Shown: positions 9,565 through 15,620 of the stretch, in pieces
Position numbering within the stretch: the first letter of the stretch is position 1
How the letters are laid out: the number at the start of each line of letters is the position of its first letter
Assembly: GCA_038060895.1 (NCBI GenBank)
Contig: JBBTCT010000002.1
Location: forward strand, 128,001-192,000
Length of the DNA: 64,000 nt
Source of the DNA: Planctomycetota bacterium
Lineage (GTDB): Bacteria; Planctomycetota; MHYJ01; WSZJ01
Reading direction: 5' to 3'
Made by a program: the position numbers and the translations under genes
The notes under the pieces: model-generated
What the model saw: only the letters and a program-made list of their open reading frames with translations
Databases searched by the model: none
What the model was told of the DNA's origin: nothing

Positions 9565-10290
9565 CTAGAGAATCGCGGCTGAAGGGCTCGTTTTCAGCAG
9601 TGCGACGATTTTCAATACTGCTTGATTCGCCGAGTCCCTGGCCTTGGCGGCAAACGAGGAAATTGACTCATCATCAAGGACGCCGTCCCAGCGGAATTCG
9701 GCTGGAATGAATGGTTCCGGCAAATTGGCAATCGGACCCTTCCCTTGGACGATTACTGACTCCAAGTCCGCGTGTTGACACCTCCCTCGGAGATCTCGAA
9801 TCCTGTTCAGCCAGCCAAGGGTCCCCGGATCGACCAAGTGGTTCTTGATTGCGCATGGCTTGGAGATCGCACGCTCTATCAGGAAGAGATTCACACCCTT
9901 TGGATTGAGCCCGAGATGGTAGACGTCATTCAGAATGCGAGACAACCCATCTGTCATGTTGGAGCAGCCCGCGACGAGGCCATCAAAGGTCAAGTACACG
10001 AAGGAGAGAAGTGCCGGGAGACTGGCGAGCGAAATCTCGCAGTCCTGATAGACGAAGGTCGACCTCAGTCTTCCGCTCGGCTGAGGAGATCCAAGGTCAT
10101 AAGCTTCGCTCCACTTCACGCTCTTCAGAAACTCAAATTGAAAATCGATGAACTGGGAGCGGCGAATAATCCCCTTTGCCTTCGCGGAAATTTGGCTGAC
10201 TTCATGAGCTGGAAGAGAGTTACGCCTGCGGAGCGCCTCGACCTCGAGGAGGGGAACGAGGGCATCCAGGTCCTGTTTCACGGTGTTCAA
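9565..10290 (-). CDS. HEPN-domain protein (Cthe_2314-like), predicted RNase
   Basis: All-helical; D-x3-R-I-L-N helix, then WLNRIRDLRGRCQH with Rx4H at 9772..9789. GTGA overlap with the STAND gene. Confidence 0.65.
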   Translation of the reverse strand: MNTVKQDLDALVPLLEVEALRRRNSLPAHEVSQISAKAKGIIRRSQFIDFQFEFLKSVKWSEAYDLGSPQPSGRLRSTFVYQDCEISLASLPALLSFVYLTFDGLVAGCSNMTDGLSRILNDVYHLGLNPKGVNLFLIERAISKPCAIKNHLVDPGTLGWLNRIRDLRGRCQHADLESVIVQGKGPIANLPEPFIPAEFRWDGVLDDESISSFAAKARDSANQAVLKIVALLKTSPSAAIL

Positions 10291-13200
10291 AAGTCGAGCT
10301 CCGCGTCATCCGCAAGTGAATCATCGATCATCCGTTGGGCCGAAGCGCGAAGCTCCTCGTAGAAATTCCGGACTCTGTGATCGGCCTCATATTCTTGCGC
10401 GAGTTTGGTTGCCCTCTCCTTGTCCTTGACCCATCGCGGCGGCGGTTCTCCGAAAGAGGAATTCCAGCCACTTGAAGACGCTGCAGAGTAGAGATAGCTC
10501 ATGACTGCTTTTCGCTCTTCATCCGGCAGGAGCTTGTACGCGCGATGAATGATGTCTGCAACCAAGTCATGGGCGTCGTAGATGACATCATGCCCCTGAC
10601 CGGCGACAACTTTCGCCACCATCTTTATGTGTGAGGAGGACTCTCGGAGGAATGCCTCCAACGTCGGCTTCAAGTTCGAGAACTCCGGAGCGACCGAATT
10701 GATCAGTTGTGGTACCCACTGGGAGTACCTCCAAGAGCGCTTCTTCATCAGAAGCAGCGCACCAACCAAGCTCCGCGTTACCTCAGGTCGAAGCGCGTCT
10801 TCGCCAAGGTCGAGCATGGCGACGGCATCACTCGGCAAAGGTTCGAAGGCTTTGTTCCCGGCGGCCTCGCATTTCTGAGCCCCCTTTGAAATCCGACTCA
10901 GGAACAGCCTGACCGTCCTTGCCGGACGGATGGACTTGGCAGCCTTGAGGAAAAGAAAGATATGAAGCGACTGATGACTGATCCCCGGCAGGTTCTCAAG
11001 GCGTGCGAGAAGCTTGTCAACCTGTGATTTCTTGAGCTCGGAATAACGGATTCCGAGCGTGTCGTGAAAGACGCTAAGTTGCCCATCAACCTCTTCCTCA
11101 GTCCTGCCGGACAGGCTCATGACTAGGGGAATTGACTCAGCAGGATGTCCCTTCGCAAGTCGGGATAGTGCGTGGAGCGCTGCGACCCTCACGTTCAGGT
11201 CCCTGTCGCGGCACAAACGTTCAACGGCTTCGTACCGCACCAGATCATGGTCGCCGGGCTTTGACATCCACCGAATCGACTCCGCGGCTTCACGTCGAAT
11301 CTCTCGCGATCTATCAGCGCAGAGAACAGTCAGGGCACTCTTGAACGCTTCTGGTGAGGTACTCCGCAAGTCGACAAGAGACTGCGTGATGCCCGAGTAG
11401 AGCAGCCGGAGGCGCCGTGAGGTGATGGCTTTCAGCATTTGGACCGTGCGCCCAACCTCACTCCTTCCCAGGGCTGTGAGAGTGTCTTGCAGTGCCCCGC
11501 GGGTTATGTCGAGGTATTTGCAGAGCTCCGAGAGGACGACGTTGAGATGCTCCACAACGGCTTCGATTGAGCCCGCAGCTTCCTCGAGCGTGGACAGCGC
11601 TTGCTTGAGTCCCGCCAACTCGACCGCTAGAGCTTCCGGCGTCCTGGGCATCCAAGATTTTCGTGCAACGAACTGGAATAGCGCGTGATCAGGCCCCGCT
11701 GGAACTGCTTCCGCGGCAGCATGGATCGCTTCCAGAGCATCGGGCCAGCCCGCCTCTTCGTGATTCAAAAGTCGGTACTTGATCGCAAAGCGGAGCGCGG
11801 CATTCGGGGTCCTGCTTGCGATTGAAACCAGGCGTTTCAGCACGTCCACCACTTCGGGGAACCATGCATCAAGTTCCTCTTTGTCGACGCGGCGAACGAA
11901 TGAGGTTTCAGGCTGATACAGGAGCCCTGTCAAGGTGGTCAGTGCCAGCTTGGCGTTCGTGGCGTCCCCCTTGCTCACTAGCTCCGCCAACAGGTCTAGC
12001 GCCAACGCTCGATGTGCTCCCAATTTGTCTGCGAGTTTCGCCATGGACCAAGGACGAATCGTCAGATTGGAAGCGGTCGAGGTGACCTGTGAAATCTCCC
12101 GCTTGAGTGCTTCCTTCAGGACATCGAAGAGCCAGTCAAGGTCATCAGGCTCTGTCATCCTTGTCCGGGCGAAGGTCGCGACGGCATCGAGCGTCGCCGC
12201 TGAGATCGTAAGAGCGTCCTCTGTTCGGAACAGGAACCGGTGGTCGTACTGGACTGCCTTGCGAAGCGCGTCAAGCACGGTGTCGGGAGTTCCCGATTTC
12301 ACTCCGAGGAGTTGGATCAGTTCGCAGAGTCGAGTTGCTGCGATGGCTGCATGTTGCGGATGAAGCAACACGAGGGATAAAAGGGCCGGTGCACGATCGA
12401 GCGCGCGAAGCGGATCGTCCTTGACTCCCCACATGTGGGCGCTTGCATCTCTTGGAGCCCGAGGGCCGTGGGTCACGATCTCAAGGATCTGTAGGATCGC
12501 CTCGGGCTGGAAGATGGCCACTTTCTGCAGTTCTGTCAGGAGTTCCCACCGAGCGATGTTCGTCATTCGCGGAATCTGGTTGAAGGTTGACTTCCAGAAT
12601 TCCGCGAGTAGCACGTTGTCAACCTGAGCGTGGGTCCGAAATCGAAGTCGGTACTCGAGATTGCCTAGATTCTCAAGGAGGTTTCCGAAGAACGTCTTTC
12701 GGAAAGCTTCGAGCCACAGATCCACTATGCCCGTGGGCTTGTCCATTCGGTTGAGAGCCGACTTCAGGACTAGGTGATCCGCTAGTACGTCAGGCAGGAT
12801 GCGCACGAGCCTGCCACGACGCAGAAACAATCCTGCACGCTCGAGGTTTCCAAGCGTCTGGACGAGTTCTGGAGCGCCAACCTTTAGAAAGGTCGCGAGC
12901 AGATCCACGTGGACCTTGTCTTCCGGTCTGAACGGTGCGACCGCGGCAAGCGTTCCCAGCAACGCATCCGTGTTAAGGGATTGCGAAATCCCCGCCCGAA
13001 CGTCGTCGCTGATGATCCTGTCAAGCGCTGCAGAGCGGAACGCGCTTGGATCCTCTGCCAAGAGATTTGGAGGCAACAGTCCGCGAGCAAGGCAAGCGCC
13101 GCCGACCGTGACGATAAGCGGAACTCCGTCGGAAGCTGCCACCAACTGGTCGGCGAATCCGGCTGCAGCTTTGCCGAGCGCGGCCTTTGCGAGAAGCAGC

Positions 13201-14147
13201 TGATCCGCCGGATTACTGAGCGGGCCGAGGCGAACGGCATGCGATAGCTTGCCGTCCTCAACGACTCGCAATTGCGCTAGAACCTGCTGCATCCCAAGAG
13301 GTCTTGTGGAAAGAATGAACGCACAGTCTGGCCGAACTCCCAGCACGGCTGCGATAACCTCCTCCAGGTCGTCGCGATGATGCGCGTCGTCGAACACGAT
13401 GACCACCTTGCCTCCGGGCAACTCTCGTAGGTGTTCCCTGGTCCACTGAGCACCTGAGGAGACGAGCCGGACCGTCTGTGCTCCGAGTTTGACCTCGATC
13501 CTCTTTGCGACTTCCAAGAGAAGGCGAGACTTTCCTACGCCGCCGGCTCCCTCGATCAAGATCGCCCTGCGGCCGCCTAGGATCGCCATTTCCACTTCTT
13601 GGGTTTGTTCTTCCCGGCCGAAGAGGGCAAGCGAGTGATTGAACACGTTCGTCGAATCGAGGTAAGGCGCGAAGTGGTCGGTCAGGATCTGAAAAAACCG
13701 CGGCGTCTGACTCCTAGTCAGATAGCCCGCAACCGACGCCAGGCAGCTTTTCACGACGTCGGCAAGCGGCACCGAGTCCCAGACACAGGACGCTCCGACT
13801 TCCCGCCTGAATTCTGCGACCGGCACCTCGTCGCCCTTCGACGGCGGCGGTGCATCGGCGATGACACAGACGAACACTGGTCTCTTGATAGCCCTTGCTG
13901 CCTGGAACTCGCTGTGAGTGTACGAGAGCGTTGAGTTGGGAACCCGCGAGCCATATCTGGTGCCGAAGAGGAGGACGACCGCGTCAGACTCACGAACGGC
14001 CGCCAGACATTCTTCGAGGGGCGGGTTCGGCCTGGAGCCAAAGTGCTCTTGCATGATGGGCTGATGTCCCGACTTGGCTAGCCCATTTGCGAGGTCCTTT
14101 CGGACATCTTCCAGGCCTTCGATCACCGAACTGATGAAAACCTTCAT
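10287..14147 (-). CDS. DUF4062 (TIR-like) - STAND NTPase - helical repeat protein (Avs-like)
   Basis: MKVFISS...CLAAVRESD...GTRYGS...SYTHSEF (DUF4062); FGRE; Walker A GAGGVGKS; Walker B VIVFDDAH; GVPL; ILPDVLADH; HEAT-like C-terminus. Confidence 0.85.
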   Translation of the reverse strand: MKVFISSVIEGLEDVRKDLANGLAKSGHQPIMQEHFGSRPNPPLEECLAAVRESDAVVLLFGTRYGSRVPNSTLSYTHSEFQAARAIKRPVFVCVIADAPPPSKGDEVPVAEFRREVGASCVWDSVPLADVVKSCLASVAGYLTRSQTPRFFQILTDHFAPYLDSTNVFNHSLALFGREEQTQEVEMAILGGRRAILIEGAGGVGKSRLLLEVAKRIEVKLGAQTVRLVSSGAQWTREHLRELPGGKVVIVFDDAHHRDDLEEVIAAVLGVRPDCAFILSTRPLGMQQVLAQLRVVEDGKLSHAVRLGPLSNPADQLLLAKAALGKAAAGFADQLVAASDGVPLIVTVGGACLARGLLPPNLLAEDPSAFRSAALDRIISDDVRAGISQSLNTDALLGTLAAVAPFRPEDKVHVDLLATFLKVGAPELVQTLGNLERAGLFLRRGRLVRILPDVLADHLVLKSALNRMDKPTGIVDLWLEAFRKTFFGNLLENLGNLEYRLRFRTHAQVDNVLLAEFWKSTFNQIPRMTNIARWELLTELQKVAIFQPEAILQILEIVTHGPRAPRDASAHMWGVKDDPLRALDRAPALLSLVLLHPQHAAIAATRLCELIQLLGVKSGTPDTVLDALRKAVQYDHRFLFRTEDALTISAATLDAVATFARTRMTEPDDLDWLFDVLKEALKREISQVTSTASNLTIRPWSMAKLADKLGAHRALALDLLAELVSKGDATNAKLALTTLTGLLYQPETSFVRRVDKEELDAWFPEVVDVLKRLVSIASRTPNAALRFAIKYRLLNHEEAGWPDALEAIHAAAEAVPAGPDHALFQFVARKSWMPRTPEALAVELAGLKQALSTLEEAAGSIEAVVEHLNVVLSELCKYLDITRGALQDTLTALGRSEVGRTVQMLKAITSRRLRLLYSGITQSLVDLRSTSPEAFKSALTVLCADRSREIRREAAESIRWMSKPGDHDLVRYEAVERLCRDRDLNVRVAALHALSRLAKGHPAESIPLVMSLSGRTEEEVDGQLSVFHDTLGIRYSELKKSQVDKLLARLENLPGISHQSLHIFLFLKAAKSIRPARTVRLFLSRISKGAQKCEAAGNKAFEPLPSDAVAMLDLGEDALRPEVTRSLVGALLLMKKRSWRYSQWVPQLINSVAPEFSNLKPTLEAFLRESSSHIKMVAKVVAGQGHDVIYDAHDLVADIIHRAYKLLPDEERKAVMSYLYSAASSSGWNSSFGEPPPRWVKDKERATKLAQEYEADHRVRNFYEELRASAQRMIDDSLADDAELDF

Positions 14148-14260
14148 TTCGCGTGTACTTCCTCGTTTCAGCGAGTCTCAACCAGAAGCTCAGGGTCTGG
14201 CACAGTCACTGAATTCACCTCGTCTACTCAGGACAGGGACCTCGCGCTCGAGTGAATCTG

Positions 14261-15310
14261 CTACTTGAATTTTGTCACACGTGAGGCGGCGAGCAACTCT
14301 TCAAGGGTAAGGGACCTTGAACCCATCGTTCCAGCAGTGAAGCGGTTCTTGATCTCAGCTCGGCTCAGTTGGTCTTTCGTGACCGGAGCTGGAAACACGA
14401 GGTACGGCGGTCCGAGCAGCATCACCAGGGTTTCCTTTCCTCCCATGTATCTTCGTACGAGTTCGGAGACTCGGAGGTAAGCATCGACGCCGTTAGCGCG
14501 AAGAAACGGGCGAAGGTCTGACATTGGCACGACCTGAATCTGCTCGATTCTTGCGAGGTATGAGATCCCCTCGCCGAAAGGGACGACCGTGATCTCCTTA
14601 AGGGCCCATTGCGCCCGAGCCGTGAAATACGGCGCGAAGTACAGGTTCCCCTGGGCAGAGTTCAAGAATCGGGGCTGGCAGGTCCAGATCTGATGTCGGA
14701 AGAACATCGTCGCCGACTCAGGGTCGCTTACATCTCTCGTGTAGATCTCCTTTGATTCGTTCTTGGTCATGCCTTCCGCCTCCAAGTGGGTCAGCAAGTC
14801 GCAGGCGATGCCGTACCCGACAGGATCCGCTTTAGCAGGAGATCGCAGGCCTCGAATCCGTGAGCAAGCGGCCGCAATGTCATCCCAGGTCCTGCGCTTC
14901 AGCCATTTCACCTGCCTCGCAAGCGTTCGGCTGAGATCACTCAAGCCTTGAGCATGCCACGAACCGTCGTCCACGATGACCAGCCCCGGCCGCCGGCCAT
15001 ACTTTTTACGGACGCTCCTGACGTAGTCCTCGAGCTGGTCGAATCGCTGCCGAAGCCCGAGCTTCCCCTCGAGAACCACCGGGTCACGCTCGGAATCGAA
15101 GAGCAGGTCGAATCGGTCTCCCTCGTCAGTTTCCTCGACCCGCACCTGGTACTGGCGATGGTTCCGGAGTCCGAGGGCGGGAAGCAGCGCTTCGGGAAAT
15201 CTGCCGCAGAGAAAACCCAGAGCAGCGGTGAGCCGTGTCTCGCGAACGCTGCCGAGTGCCGAGAGGAAAGAAGTCACTTGCTTGTCAGCGCGGAAAACTG
15301 AGAGGGGCAT
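14261..15310 (-). CDS. PD-(D/E)XK nuclease with uncharacterised C-terminal domain
   Basis: ETRLTAAL helix, then RFDLLF...VVLEGK...QLEDY and TWDDI, typical of PD-(D/E)XK superfamily 4-like nucleases. Confidence 0.7.
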   Translation of the reverse strand: MPLSVFRADKQVTSFLSALGSVRETRLTAALGFLCGRFPEALLPALGLRNHRQYQVRVEETDEGDRFDLLFDSERDPVVLEGKLGLRQRFDQLEDYVRSVRKKYGRRPGLVIVDDGSWHAQGLSDLSRTLARQVKWLKRRTWDDIAAACSRIRGLRSPAKADPVGYGIACDLLTHLEAEGMTKNESKEIYTRDVSDPESATMFFRHQIWTCQPRFLNSAQGNLYFAPYFTARAQWALKEITVVPFGEGISYLARIEQIQVVPMSDLRPFLRANGVDAYLRVSELVRRYMGGKETLVMLLGPPYLVFPAPVTKDQLSRAEIKNRFTAGTMGSRSLTLEELLAASRVTKFK

Positions 15311-15518
15311 TCGCGTCTCTTCGATGAACTACGAATCGGGTCCGATGCTGAGGTTGGATCGGATGGTACCGAAATCGAGGAGGCGACCATCACGGGAGGT
15401 GATCTCCCGGCCGGAGTTGGAATCGCGCCGGGAATCCAGAATCTCGCCGCGCCCTCCGGTAGGAAGGGTGTCAGAAAACCGAGCCGAGCCCGGCCAGTTC
15501 TTCGTTGCCAGAAAAGTA

Positions 15519-15583
15519 GCTCCCCAGGGAGGACTCGAACTCGCATTCAGCTTCCAAGCCGTACCAATCCGGCCTACCAGGGA
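15519..15583 (-). pseudogene. degenerate tRNA-like relic / att-like 3' end of tRNA-Asn
   Basis: Minus strand ends GTTCGAGTCCTCCCTGGGGAGC (T-loop plus 3' acceptor strand). TCCCTGG and GCCG-GATTGGTA-CGGC lie upstream, but there is no anticodon arm and the T-stem is broken. Confidence 0.5.
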
Positions 15584-15620
15584 TGACCCCTCCCGCGCCG
15601 TGGGTTAGAGTGTCCGCGCC

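Follow-up and report, generated by a model that had tools for sequence, protein, structure and literature searches.

Introduction

DUF4062 domains have been characterized in three 2026 preprints (10.64898/2026.05.01.722283, 10.64898/2026.09.04.749371 and 10.64898/2026.06.25.731849); these and the other papers cited below were accessible in part, and what is said of them refers to the accessible parts. Osinski et al. (10.64898/2026.05.01.722283) describe a portal-activated DUF4062 NADase that yields ADP-ribose and nicotinamide. The characterized enzymes kill by depleting nicotinamide adenine dinucleotide (NAD+), which they convert to linear ADP-ribose and nicotinamide, and in every case tested the domain is an executioner and not a signal maker. 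Le Mouellic et al. (10.64898/2026.09.04.749371), who renamed the domain NIR, report it as the effector of PsAvs2 and on other NLR-like proteins, and find that phage NARP1 impairs defence by PsAvs2. Here, we describe a gene pair in a 64-kb stretch of a Planctomycetota contig (JBBTCT010000002.1, positions 128 001–192 000; the whole stretch is called the window), in which a gene for an NIR-headed STAND sensor (gene A) is followed by one for a probable HEPN-fold protein (gene B). The pair is a real, conserved and mobile two-gene module, and it is probably an unnamed two-effector variant of the Avs sensors whose genes have travelled together across several bacterial groups.

Other described systems share parts of this arrangement. 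In Avs8 (PD-lambda-4), the second protein, Avs8B, is dispensable for Avs8A and has no similarity to described proteins (Nagy et al., 10.1101/2025.07.02.662641). Lee et al. (Nature 2026, PMC13581612) define Avs7 and Avs10–24 and 90 sensor clusters with a tripartite STAND architecture and exchangeable heads, and the sole HEPN mentioned in that text is one fused to the sensor of Avs7. Among stand-alone HEPN families, no operon was detected for Cthe_2314, and LA2681 was linked to TPR genes (Anantharaman et al., 2013, PMC3710099); DS-11 is a ligand-regulated HEPN defence protein (DefensePredictor, PMC13092281). An earlier note on the window, made from the sequence alone, had proposed a three-gene anti-phage system consisting of a PD-(D/E)XK nuclease, a STAND sensor with a TIR-like head and a coupled HEPN RNase.

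Organization and conservation of the gene pair

Gene A (positions 14147–10287, 1286 residues) encodes an NIR/DUF4062 domain, a STAND NTPase and a helical sensor, and gene B (positions 10290–9565, 241 residues, TTG start) encodes an HEPN-fold protein that stands alone and is close to the Cthe_2314 group. Both lie on the minus strand of the window, co-oriented with a third open reading frame (ORF), gene 1; the three co-oriented genes that the earlier note had seen are thus present, as ORFs of 349, 1286 and 241 residues. Each is present as a single copy within the genome. The overlap between gene A and gene B, which the note had read as GTGA, is TTGA in the window: the two genes share 4 nucleotides (nt), the TTG start beginning at 10290 and the TGA stop occupying 10289–10287. 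The GTG at 10281 lies three codons inside gene B, clear of the gene A stop, and it is the TTG that aligns with the starts of the relatives of gene B. Junctions in the relatives are 4-nt (GTGA, ATGA) or 1-nt overlaps, with GTGA the commonest (nine of 15 junctions).

Scans with the STAND alignment fetched 27 loci, the titled records among which are from Phycisphaerae, other Planctomycetota, Acidobacteriota and an alphaproteobacterium, and gene B homologues were sought in these loci with the gene B of the window alone. Ten loci, which run into contig ends or have the STAND broken before its C-terminus (L011, L018, L020–L025, L033 and L034), were excluded. An HEPN sequence lies immediately behind the STAND in 16 of the 17 evaluable loci and is intact in 13, so the pair is conserved in other genomes, as had been proposed. 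Gene A and gene B are both frameshifted, many times over, in L015. Gene A is intact without a working gene B in three of the 17 loci: gene B is a remnant of about 69 residues with a stop in L014, is split by a transposase in L028, and is not found within the 356 nt available behind gene A in L035. The distances of A and B are strongly correlated (Mantel rho of 0.91, p = 1e-4, 14 pairs spanning 21–90% identity, in a set that includes the close loci L013/L029 and L016/L017/L026), and the two trees are congruent.

The linkage was also approached from the HEPN side. A full HMMER scan gave 56 gene B matches among 50%-cluster representatives, where a word-index search had found no relative. When 401 genomes from the class of genome G419 were scanned with the profile, three matches were obtained, two of them already known, and the sole new locus (L067) has an NIR-STAND directly upstream. 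All four complete gene B copies from the genome-wide HEPN-profile scans (that of the window and three more) are located behind a STAND; this reverse test is small, contexts having been read for only a minority of the 56 representatives. The A–B module is rare, since none of 400 other genomes of its own phylum contains a match to the HEPN profile. No match at 1e-4 was obtained in 401 genomes of the phylum of G421, a scan in which the known remnant scored 7.8e-4 and which had no positive control.

The STAND is truncated, frameshifted or internally deleted in six of the 27 loci (L010, L015, L021, L022, L033 and L034), reflecting frequent decay or assembly error. In L009–L032, an acidic STAND tail is conserved (e.g. 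WEEEGDDE), the purine-rich GAG/GAA codons of which form a Shine–Dalgarno-like tract immediately upstream of the start of the HEPN gene. Translational coupling may be the reason for the retention of this tail.

The lower-GC island that the note had seen is present. The G+C content is 0.55–0.61 in the 1-kb bins of positions 10001–15000 compared with about 0.66 for the contig, and at third codon positions it is 0.65–0.69 in the island genes compared with 0.88 in the flanking genes, which encode a sulfatase and a short-chain reductase (Pfam). Searches of 40 related genomes gave no full-length relative of gene A, and in seven congeners the island was not found and only its flanks were matched.

Structure of gene A

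The product of gene A follows the Avs plan of an N-terminal effector, a central STAND NTPase and a C-terminal helical repeat sensor. The NIR/DUF4062 NADase head is matched by Pfam at residues 2–84 (E value of 2.7e-22; 79.2 bits against a cutoff of 24.7) and extends to about residue 145. The YTHSEF motif carries Glu80 (positions 13908–13910), the predicted catalytic glutamate. In a search of PDB sequences the gene A profile matched KpSwz (E value of 6e-15), and Glu80 aligns opposite the alanine of the mutated site in the KpSwz E97A structure (10wc). A weak match to TIR_2 was also obtained (Pfam, E value of 2.9e-4). The STAND NTPase with its winged helix occupies residues ∼150–465 (nSTAND_NTPase5, 9.5e-8, below the cutoff) and contains Walker A (GAGGVGKS, with Lys206 at 13530–13532) and Walker B (VVIVFDD, with Asp253 and Asp254 at 13386–13391), the two motifs spanning positions 13386–13550. 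Glu80, Lys206, Asp253 and Asp254 are each invariant in all 33 aligned sequences, some of which are near-duplicates; the conserved DUF4062 glutamate and the intact Walker motifs had been claimed from the letters of the window. The remainder, to the C-terminus, is an all-helical HEAT/TPR-like sensor with weak Pfam HEAT matches.

The predicted model of residues 150–1286 (mean predicted local distance difference test score, pLDDT, of 86.9) comprises a P-loop domain, a winged helix and a long helical solenoid that closes in a long C-terminal helix. Foldseek places Avs4, Avs3 and SAMD9 on top with template-modelling (TM) scores of no more than 0.2, the best being Avs4 (1.1e-8, TM score of 0.18). Structure comparison with VIA returns NRC2, EfAvs5, MalT-system and NLRP chains with Z scores of 14–15 over the NTPase part. 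From these NLR/STAND ranks and the low TM scores, the model identifies gene A as a STAND protein with a sensor that has no match among the solved ones; a STAND sensor with a TIR-like head, as had been suggested, thus agrees with the DUF4062 match and the model comparison.

No Avs-type PADLOC (2023) match was obtained for gene A of the window or for 22 relatives, and gene A is filed here neither within nor outside the numbered Avs families; nor do Avs entries appear among its PDB sequence matches. PADLOC and NCBIfam gave no system-level match for gene A or gene B, so that the pair has no match to a named system in these libraries; a full match to one would have counted against the proposal of the note. 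The STAND of gene A was not found in the viral contigs or phage records searched.

More distant relatives resemble gene A over the length of the NTPase and sensor and differ in having nuclease heads. These heads are Mrr-like, helix-turn-helix–Mrr or Cap4/DUF4297-like (P0015–P0021, P0079–P0084, L037–L039 and L043–L045), and L043 sits in a region resembling a prophage or an integrative and conjugative element. The HEPN profile has no match in the six nuclease-headed loci with context (L037–L039 and L043–L045). Closely coupled downstream genes are present behind two of them (L039:9316–10536, 406 residues, and L045:9472–10428, 318 residues); neither gives a match to the HEPN profile or to any family in the libraries searched. 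In a FastTree analysis of 44 NTPase-plus-sensor rows, 24 of the 25 NIR-headed rows, including that of the window, form one clade (SH support of 100, with long branches flagged), which was recovered on 20 rows (SH-aLRT of 98). All of the HEPN-linked loci fall within this main NIR clade, and the link between NIR and HEPN is probably a single ancient event. One DUF4062-headed relative (P0078) lies outside the clade and may have acquired the head independently; the topology test (p-AU of 0.21) neither rejects nor establishes a single clade of all NIR-headed rows that takes in P0078.

Structure of gene B

Gene B of the window has no match in Pfam, PADLOC or NCBIfam, and a PDB sequence search with the HEPN profile gave none. 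The Rx4H motif that had been noted is R168-GRCQ-H173 (positions 9772–9789, minus strand); it is the predicted RNase site, together with Asn111 and Asp114, and is intact in 49 of 51 aligned relatives, Asn111 and Asp114 being invariant in all 51. Other conserved, noncatalytic residues are Lys44, Trp60 and Arg118. The model (pLDDT of 95) consists of one helical domain with a small β insert (residues 66–88). Atlas features score 0.95 to HEPN_Cthe2314 clusters, and Atlas structure comparison gives a TM score of 0.63 to an HEPN_LA2681 cluster. The top VIA match is the HEPN protein AF_0298 (Z score of 8.6, root-mean-square deviation of 3.0 over 124 aligned residues), with HEPN chains at ranks 1, 3, 4, 5, 10 and 11, a result of moderate strength that favours the HEPN fold expected of the small ORF. 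The motif, language-model and fold evidence thus agree that gene B is a probable HEPN protein, with a putative RNase activity. It has no separate signal-binding domain: the model contains one HEPN domain and no such Pfam family occurs in the 51 members. The effector of Thoeris-type TIR signalling does carry such a separate domain (SLOG or Macro).

Gene 1 and the surrounding genes

Gene 1 (positions 15310–14261, minus strand, 349 residues) is separated from gene A by 113 nt. Its assignment as a PD-(D/E)XK nuclease is weak: there is a match to PDDEXK_4 (E value of 3.7e-4; residues Asp68, Glu81 and Lys83), which at 20.9 bits is below the cutoff of 22.3, and a weak PADLOC match to PDC-S26 (E value of 0.005). 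The domain is a probable one; a C-terminal region of about 165 residues matches no family, and gene 1 may be a separate single-gene nuclease defence. No homologue of gene 1 was found among the ORFs of the 27 loci (phmmer, E ≤ 1) or in the plasmid set. A three-gene system is rejected on account of these absences; the conserved unit is two genes, and gene 1 is a bystander that neighbours the module.

Every neighbour except gene B changes between loci. In a survey of 22 ORFs picked by hand, without a background count, the neighbours include Fic, type I/III restriction, DUF499, HNH, MNT-HEPN, AbiTii, ArdC and transposase genes, the first six of these kinds being present upstream. Defence-like neighbourhoods, which agree with the proposal of an anti-phage system in the note, are thus seen near the relatives in the form of Fic, restriction, AbiTii and MNT-HEPN genes, and the NIR head, the nuclease-headed relatives and these neighbours together have the character of defence.

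At the right edge of the island, a degenerate tRNA-like stretch lies on the minus strand at 15440–15590, with a T-loop-like GTTCGAGTCC recognized by eye. A segment of 103 nt matches G000:C22:194782–194883, which adjoins an array of 34 tRNA genes, at 77%; its folding z score is −1.95, and neither ARAGORN nor Rfam, which gave no matches in the region, makes a call there. The stretch is possibly the remnant of an integration site. From 15621 onward, a reductase/ketoacyl-synthase/thioesterase-like cluster is kept in five congeners, and the DNA upstream of it varies among them.

Proposed function

We assign a probability of roughly one half to the reading in which the pair is an anti-phage Avs module, with gene A as an NADase and gene B as an accessory RNase arm controlled through A. 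The architecture, intact sites, linkage, co-divergence and mobility were computed in this analysis, and Avs activation and NIR chemistry are taken from the family literature; defence by the pair, RNase activity and the control of gene B are what we infer from them. By analogy with Avs biology (PMC13581612), the sensor of gene A would bind a phage protein, release autoinhibition and oligomerize, and the clustered NIR heads would deplete NAD+. We consider this course of events for gene A to be quite probable. Gene B would be made in step with gene A by translational coupling and would act as an HEPN RNase, a second and NAD-independent arm, for which the simplest switch would be contact with A once A is activated. 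Gene A is probably able to work without it: since gene A stays intact without a working gene B in three of 17 loci, gene B would not be the antidote of A and appears to be dispensable, like Avs8B and VstB.

More tentatively, HEPN could be a dedicated in-trans second effector of an NLR-like NADase, turned on either by the STAND oligomer in its active form or by the ADP-ribose that this oligomer makes. Its recruitment to the NADase-headed clade might be a response to phages, which are able to rebuild NAD+ from ADP-ribose and nicotinamide; RNA cleavage would then back up NAD+ depletion. NARP1 blunts the NIR-headed PsAvs2, and an RNase arm on the NIR-headed clade would accordingly offer a hypothesis of counter-counter-defence.

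Several observations weigh against the two-effector reading. The fold match of gene B is middling, its best Z score falling short of the value of ∼13 that VIA sets as a bar for helical bundles; Foldseek with the gene B model returned nothing at E ≤ 0.001, and Pfam HEPN_Cthe2314 (PF18730) is touched by only five of the 51 members, at best with a sub-cutoff E value of 6.9e-4. In L010, gene B is intact although the adjacent gene A is missing ∼280 residues from its N-terminus; an arm activated strictly by the STAND would account for this only if the break had arisen recently or in assembly. Metagenome assemblies are the source of many of the loci, and breaks may therefore be artefactual. The co-divergence of A and B shows co-inheritance and not contact, and because the link looks like one event, the restriction of HEPN to the NIR clade counts as a single observation. 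For any member of the family, the support for the function of the pair consists of sequences and models.

A different division of labour, in which the STAND guards gene B, is unlikely. The STAND at rest would keep gene B, an HEPN toxin, inactive, and inhibition, degradation or remodelling of the STAND by a phage protein would set the toxin free. Such a guard would suit the tight translational coupling with gene A upstream, the neutralization of HEPN toxins by partners (MNT-HEPN and LsoA–Dmd, both among the VIA structure rows for gene B) and the tolerated loss of gene B alone in L014 and L028. L010 can be read both ways, as gene A has kept its sensor part there beside the intact gene B but has lost its NIR head and the greater part of its nucleotide-binding domain.

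It is also rather improbable that gene B senses or acts alone and is kept with A because both are selected in one cassette. Such independence would fit the three loci in which gene A persists without a functional gene B, the six nuclease-headed relatives that do without an HEPN partner, and Avs8B, which is operonic yet dispensable (Nagy et al.). However, the order and the codon overlap persist even at ∼21% identity and the trees are congruent, while all other neighbours change, and the four complete gene B copies from scans that were not started from the STAND all sit behind one.

The earlier note had left the choice between a sensor–signal–RNase relay and two effectors. A relay in the style of Thoeris, with HEPN activated by a signal that the NIR head derives from NAD, is doubtful, and the two-effector option is favoured because the DUF4062 domains of the 2026 preprints are executioners that make linear ADP-ribose and nicotinamide. 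The weak TIR_2 match, the presence of the HEPN partner with the NIR-headed clade only and the precedent of DS-11 speak for a relay, as does a pocket that the β insert of gene B could form with Lys44, Trp60 and Arg118; but the model of gene B consists of a lone HEPN domain, without a nucleotide-binding domain beside it, and gene A persists intact where gene B is dead. A stress or anti-plasmid cell-arrest module is very improbable, as the NIR head, the nuclease-swapped relatives, the patchy island distribution and the defence neighbours stand against the lack of a PADLOC match and the interspersion of non-defence STAND clades with defence clades (Lee et al., PMC13581612).

Comparison with known systems

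The component parts of the pair are all known domain types. Like the Cthe_2314 and LA2681 families, gene B is a stand-alone HEPN with an Rx4–6H motif; unlike them as described, its family falls below the Pfam cutoffs and is tied to an NIR-STAND. Swarozyc, Evangelion, Vulcan and Vesta share the DUF4062 NADase core, and Vesta has a linked, dispensable second gene (VstB). As described in the accessible passages, they consist of DUF4062 with AUX, a short tail or HEAT and lack a STAND, and their partners are AUX, HEAT or alkaline phosphatase and not HEPN; gene A, which has a STAND, does not belong with them. The passages of the Evangelion preprint (10.64898/2026.06.25.731849) contain no occurrence of HEPN or STAND, and the main text of Le Mouellic et al. 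contains none of HEPN or RNase.

As in Avs7 and Avs10–24, heads are exchanged on one NTPase–sensor framework, with Mrr-like, Cap4/DUF4297-like and helix-turn-helix–nuclease heads among the relatives of the STAND of the window. The sensor may be one of the clusters or numbered families of Lee et al., with which it was compared by description only; HEPN, DUF4062 and the three accessions tried do not occur in the part of their supplements that was available. The literature searched, including passages of Kaur et al. (2021, PMC8195603) and PMC13092281, does not describe an operon of DUF4062-STAND and HEPN, although supplements and subscription papers may list one. The impression that the layout is not a recognized Avs one therefore needs dividing: the DUF4062 head on an Avs protein is known from PsAvs2, and the HEPN coupled to an NIR-headed Avs is new with respect to the literature searched.

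PsAvs2 and gene A have in common an N-terminal DUF4062 with its catalytic glutamate, a central STAND, C-terminal helical repeats and predicted NAD+ depletion. PsAvs2 differs in that it is described as one protein, with an Avs2 sensor that recognizes terminase, while the sensor of the window has no PADLOC Avs match. Avs8 resembles the pair in being a two-gene operon of a large STAND sensor and a smaller, dispensable downstream gene. In this comparison, made by description only, Avs8A has an Mrr head and senses a capsid protein; its DUF4062 head sets gene A apart from Avs8A, of which the Mrr nuclease head is a mark. In characterized Avs receptors the effector is the fused head, and no role has been assigned to operonic partners such as Avs8B. 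Gene B, with a recognizable, intact RNase site and co-divergence with its sensor, makes the role of such partner genes directly testable, and the pair would, if gene B proves to be a dedicated second effector in trans, be a bacterial STAND receptor that drives two different effectors, one fused and one separate.

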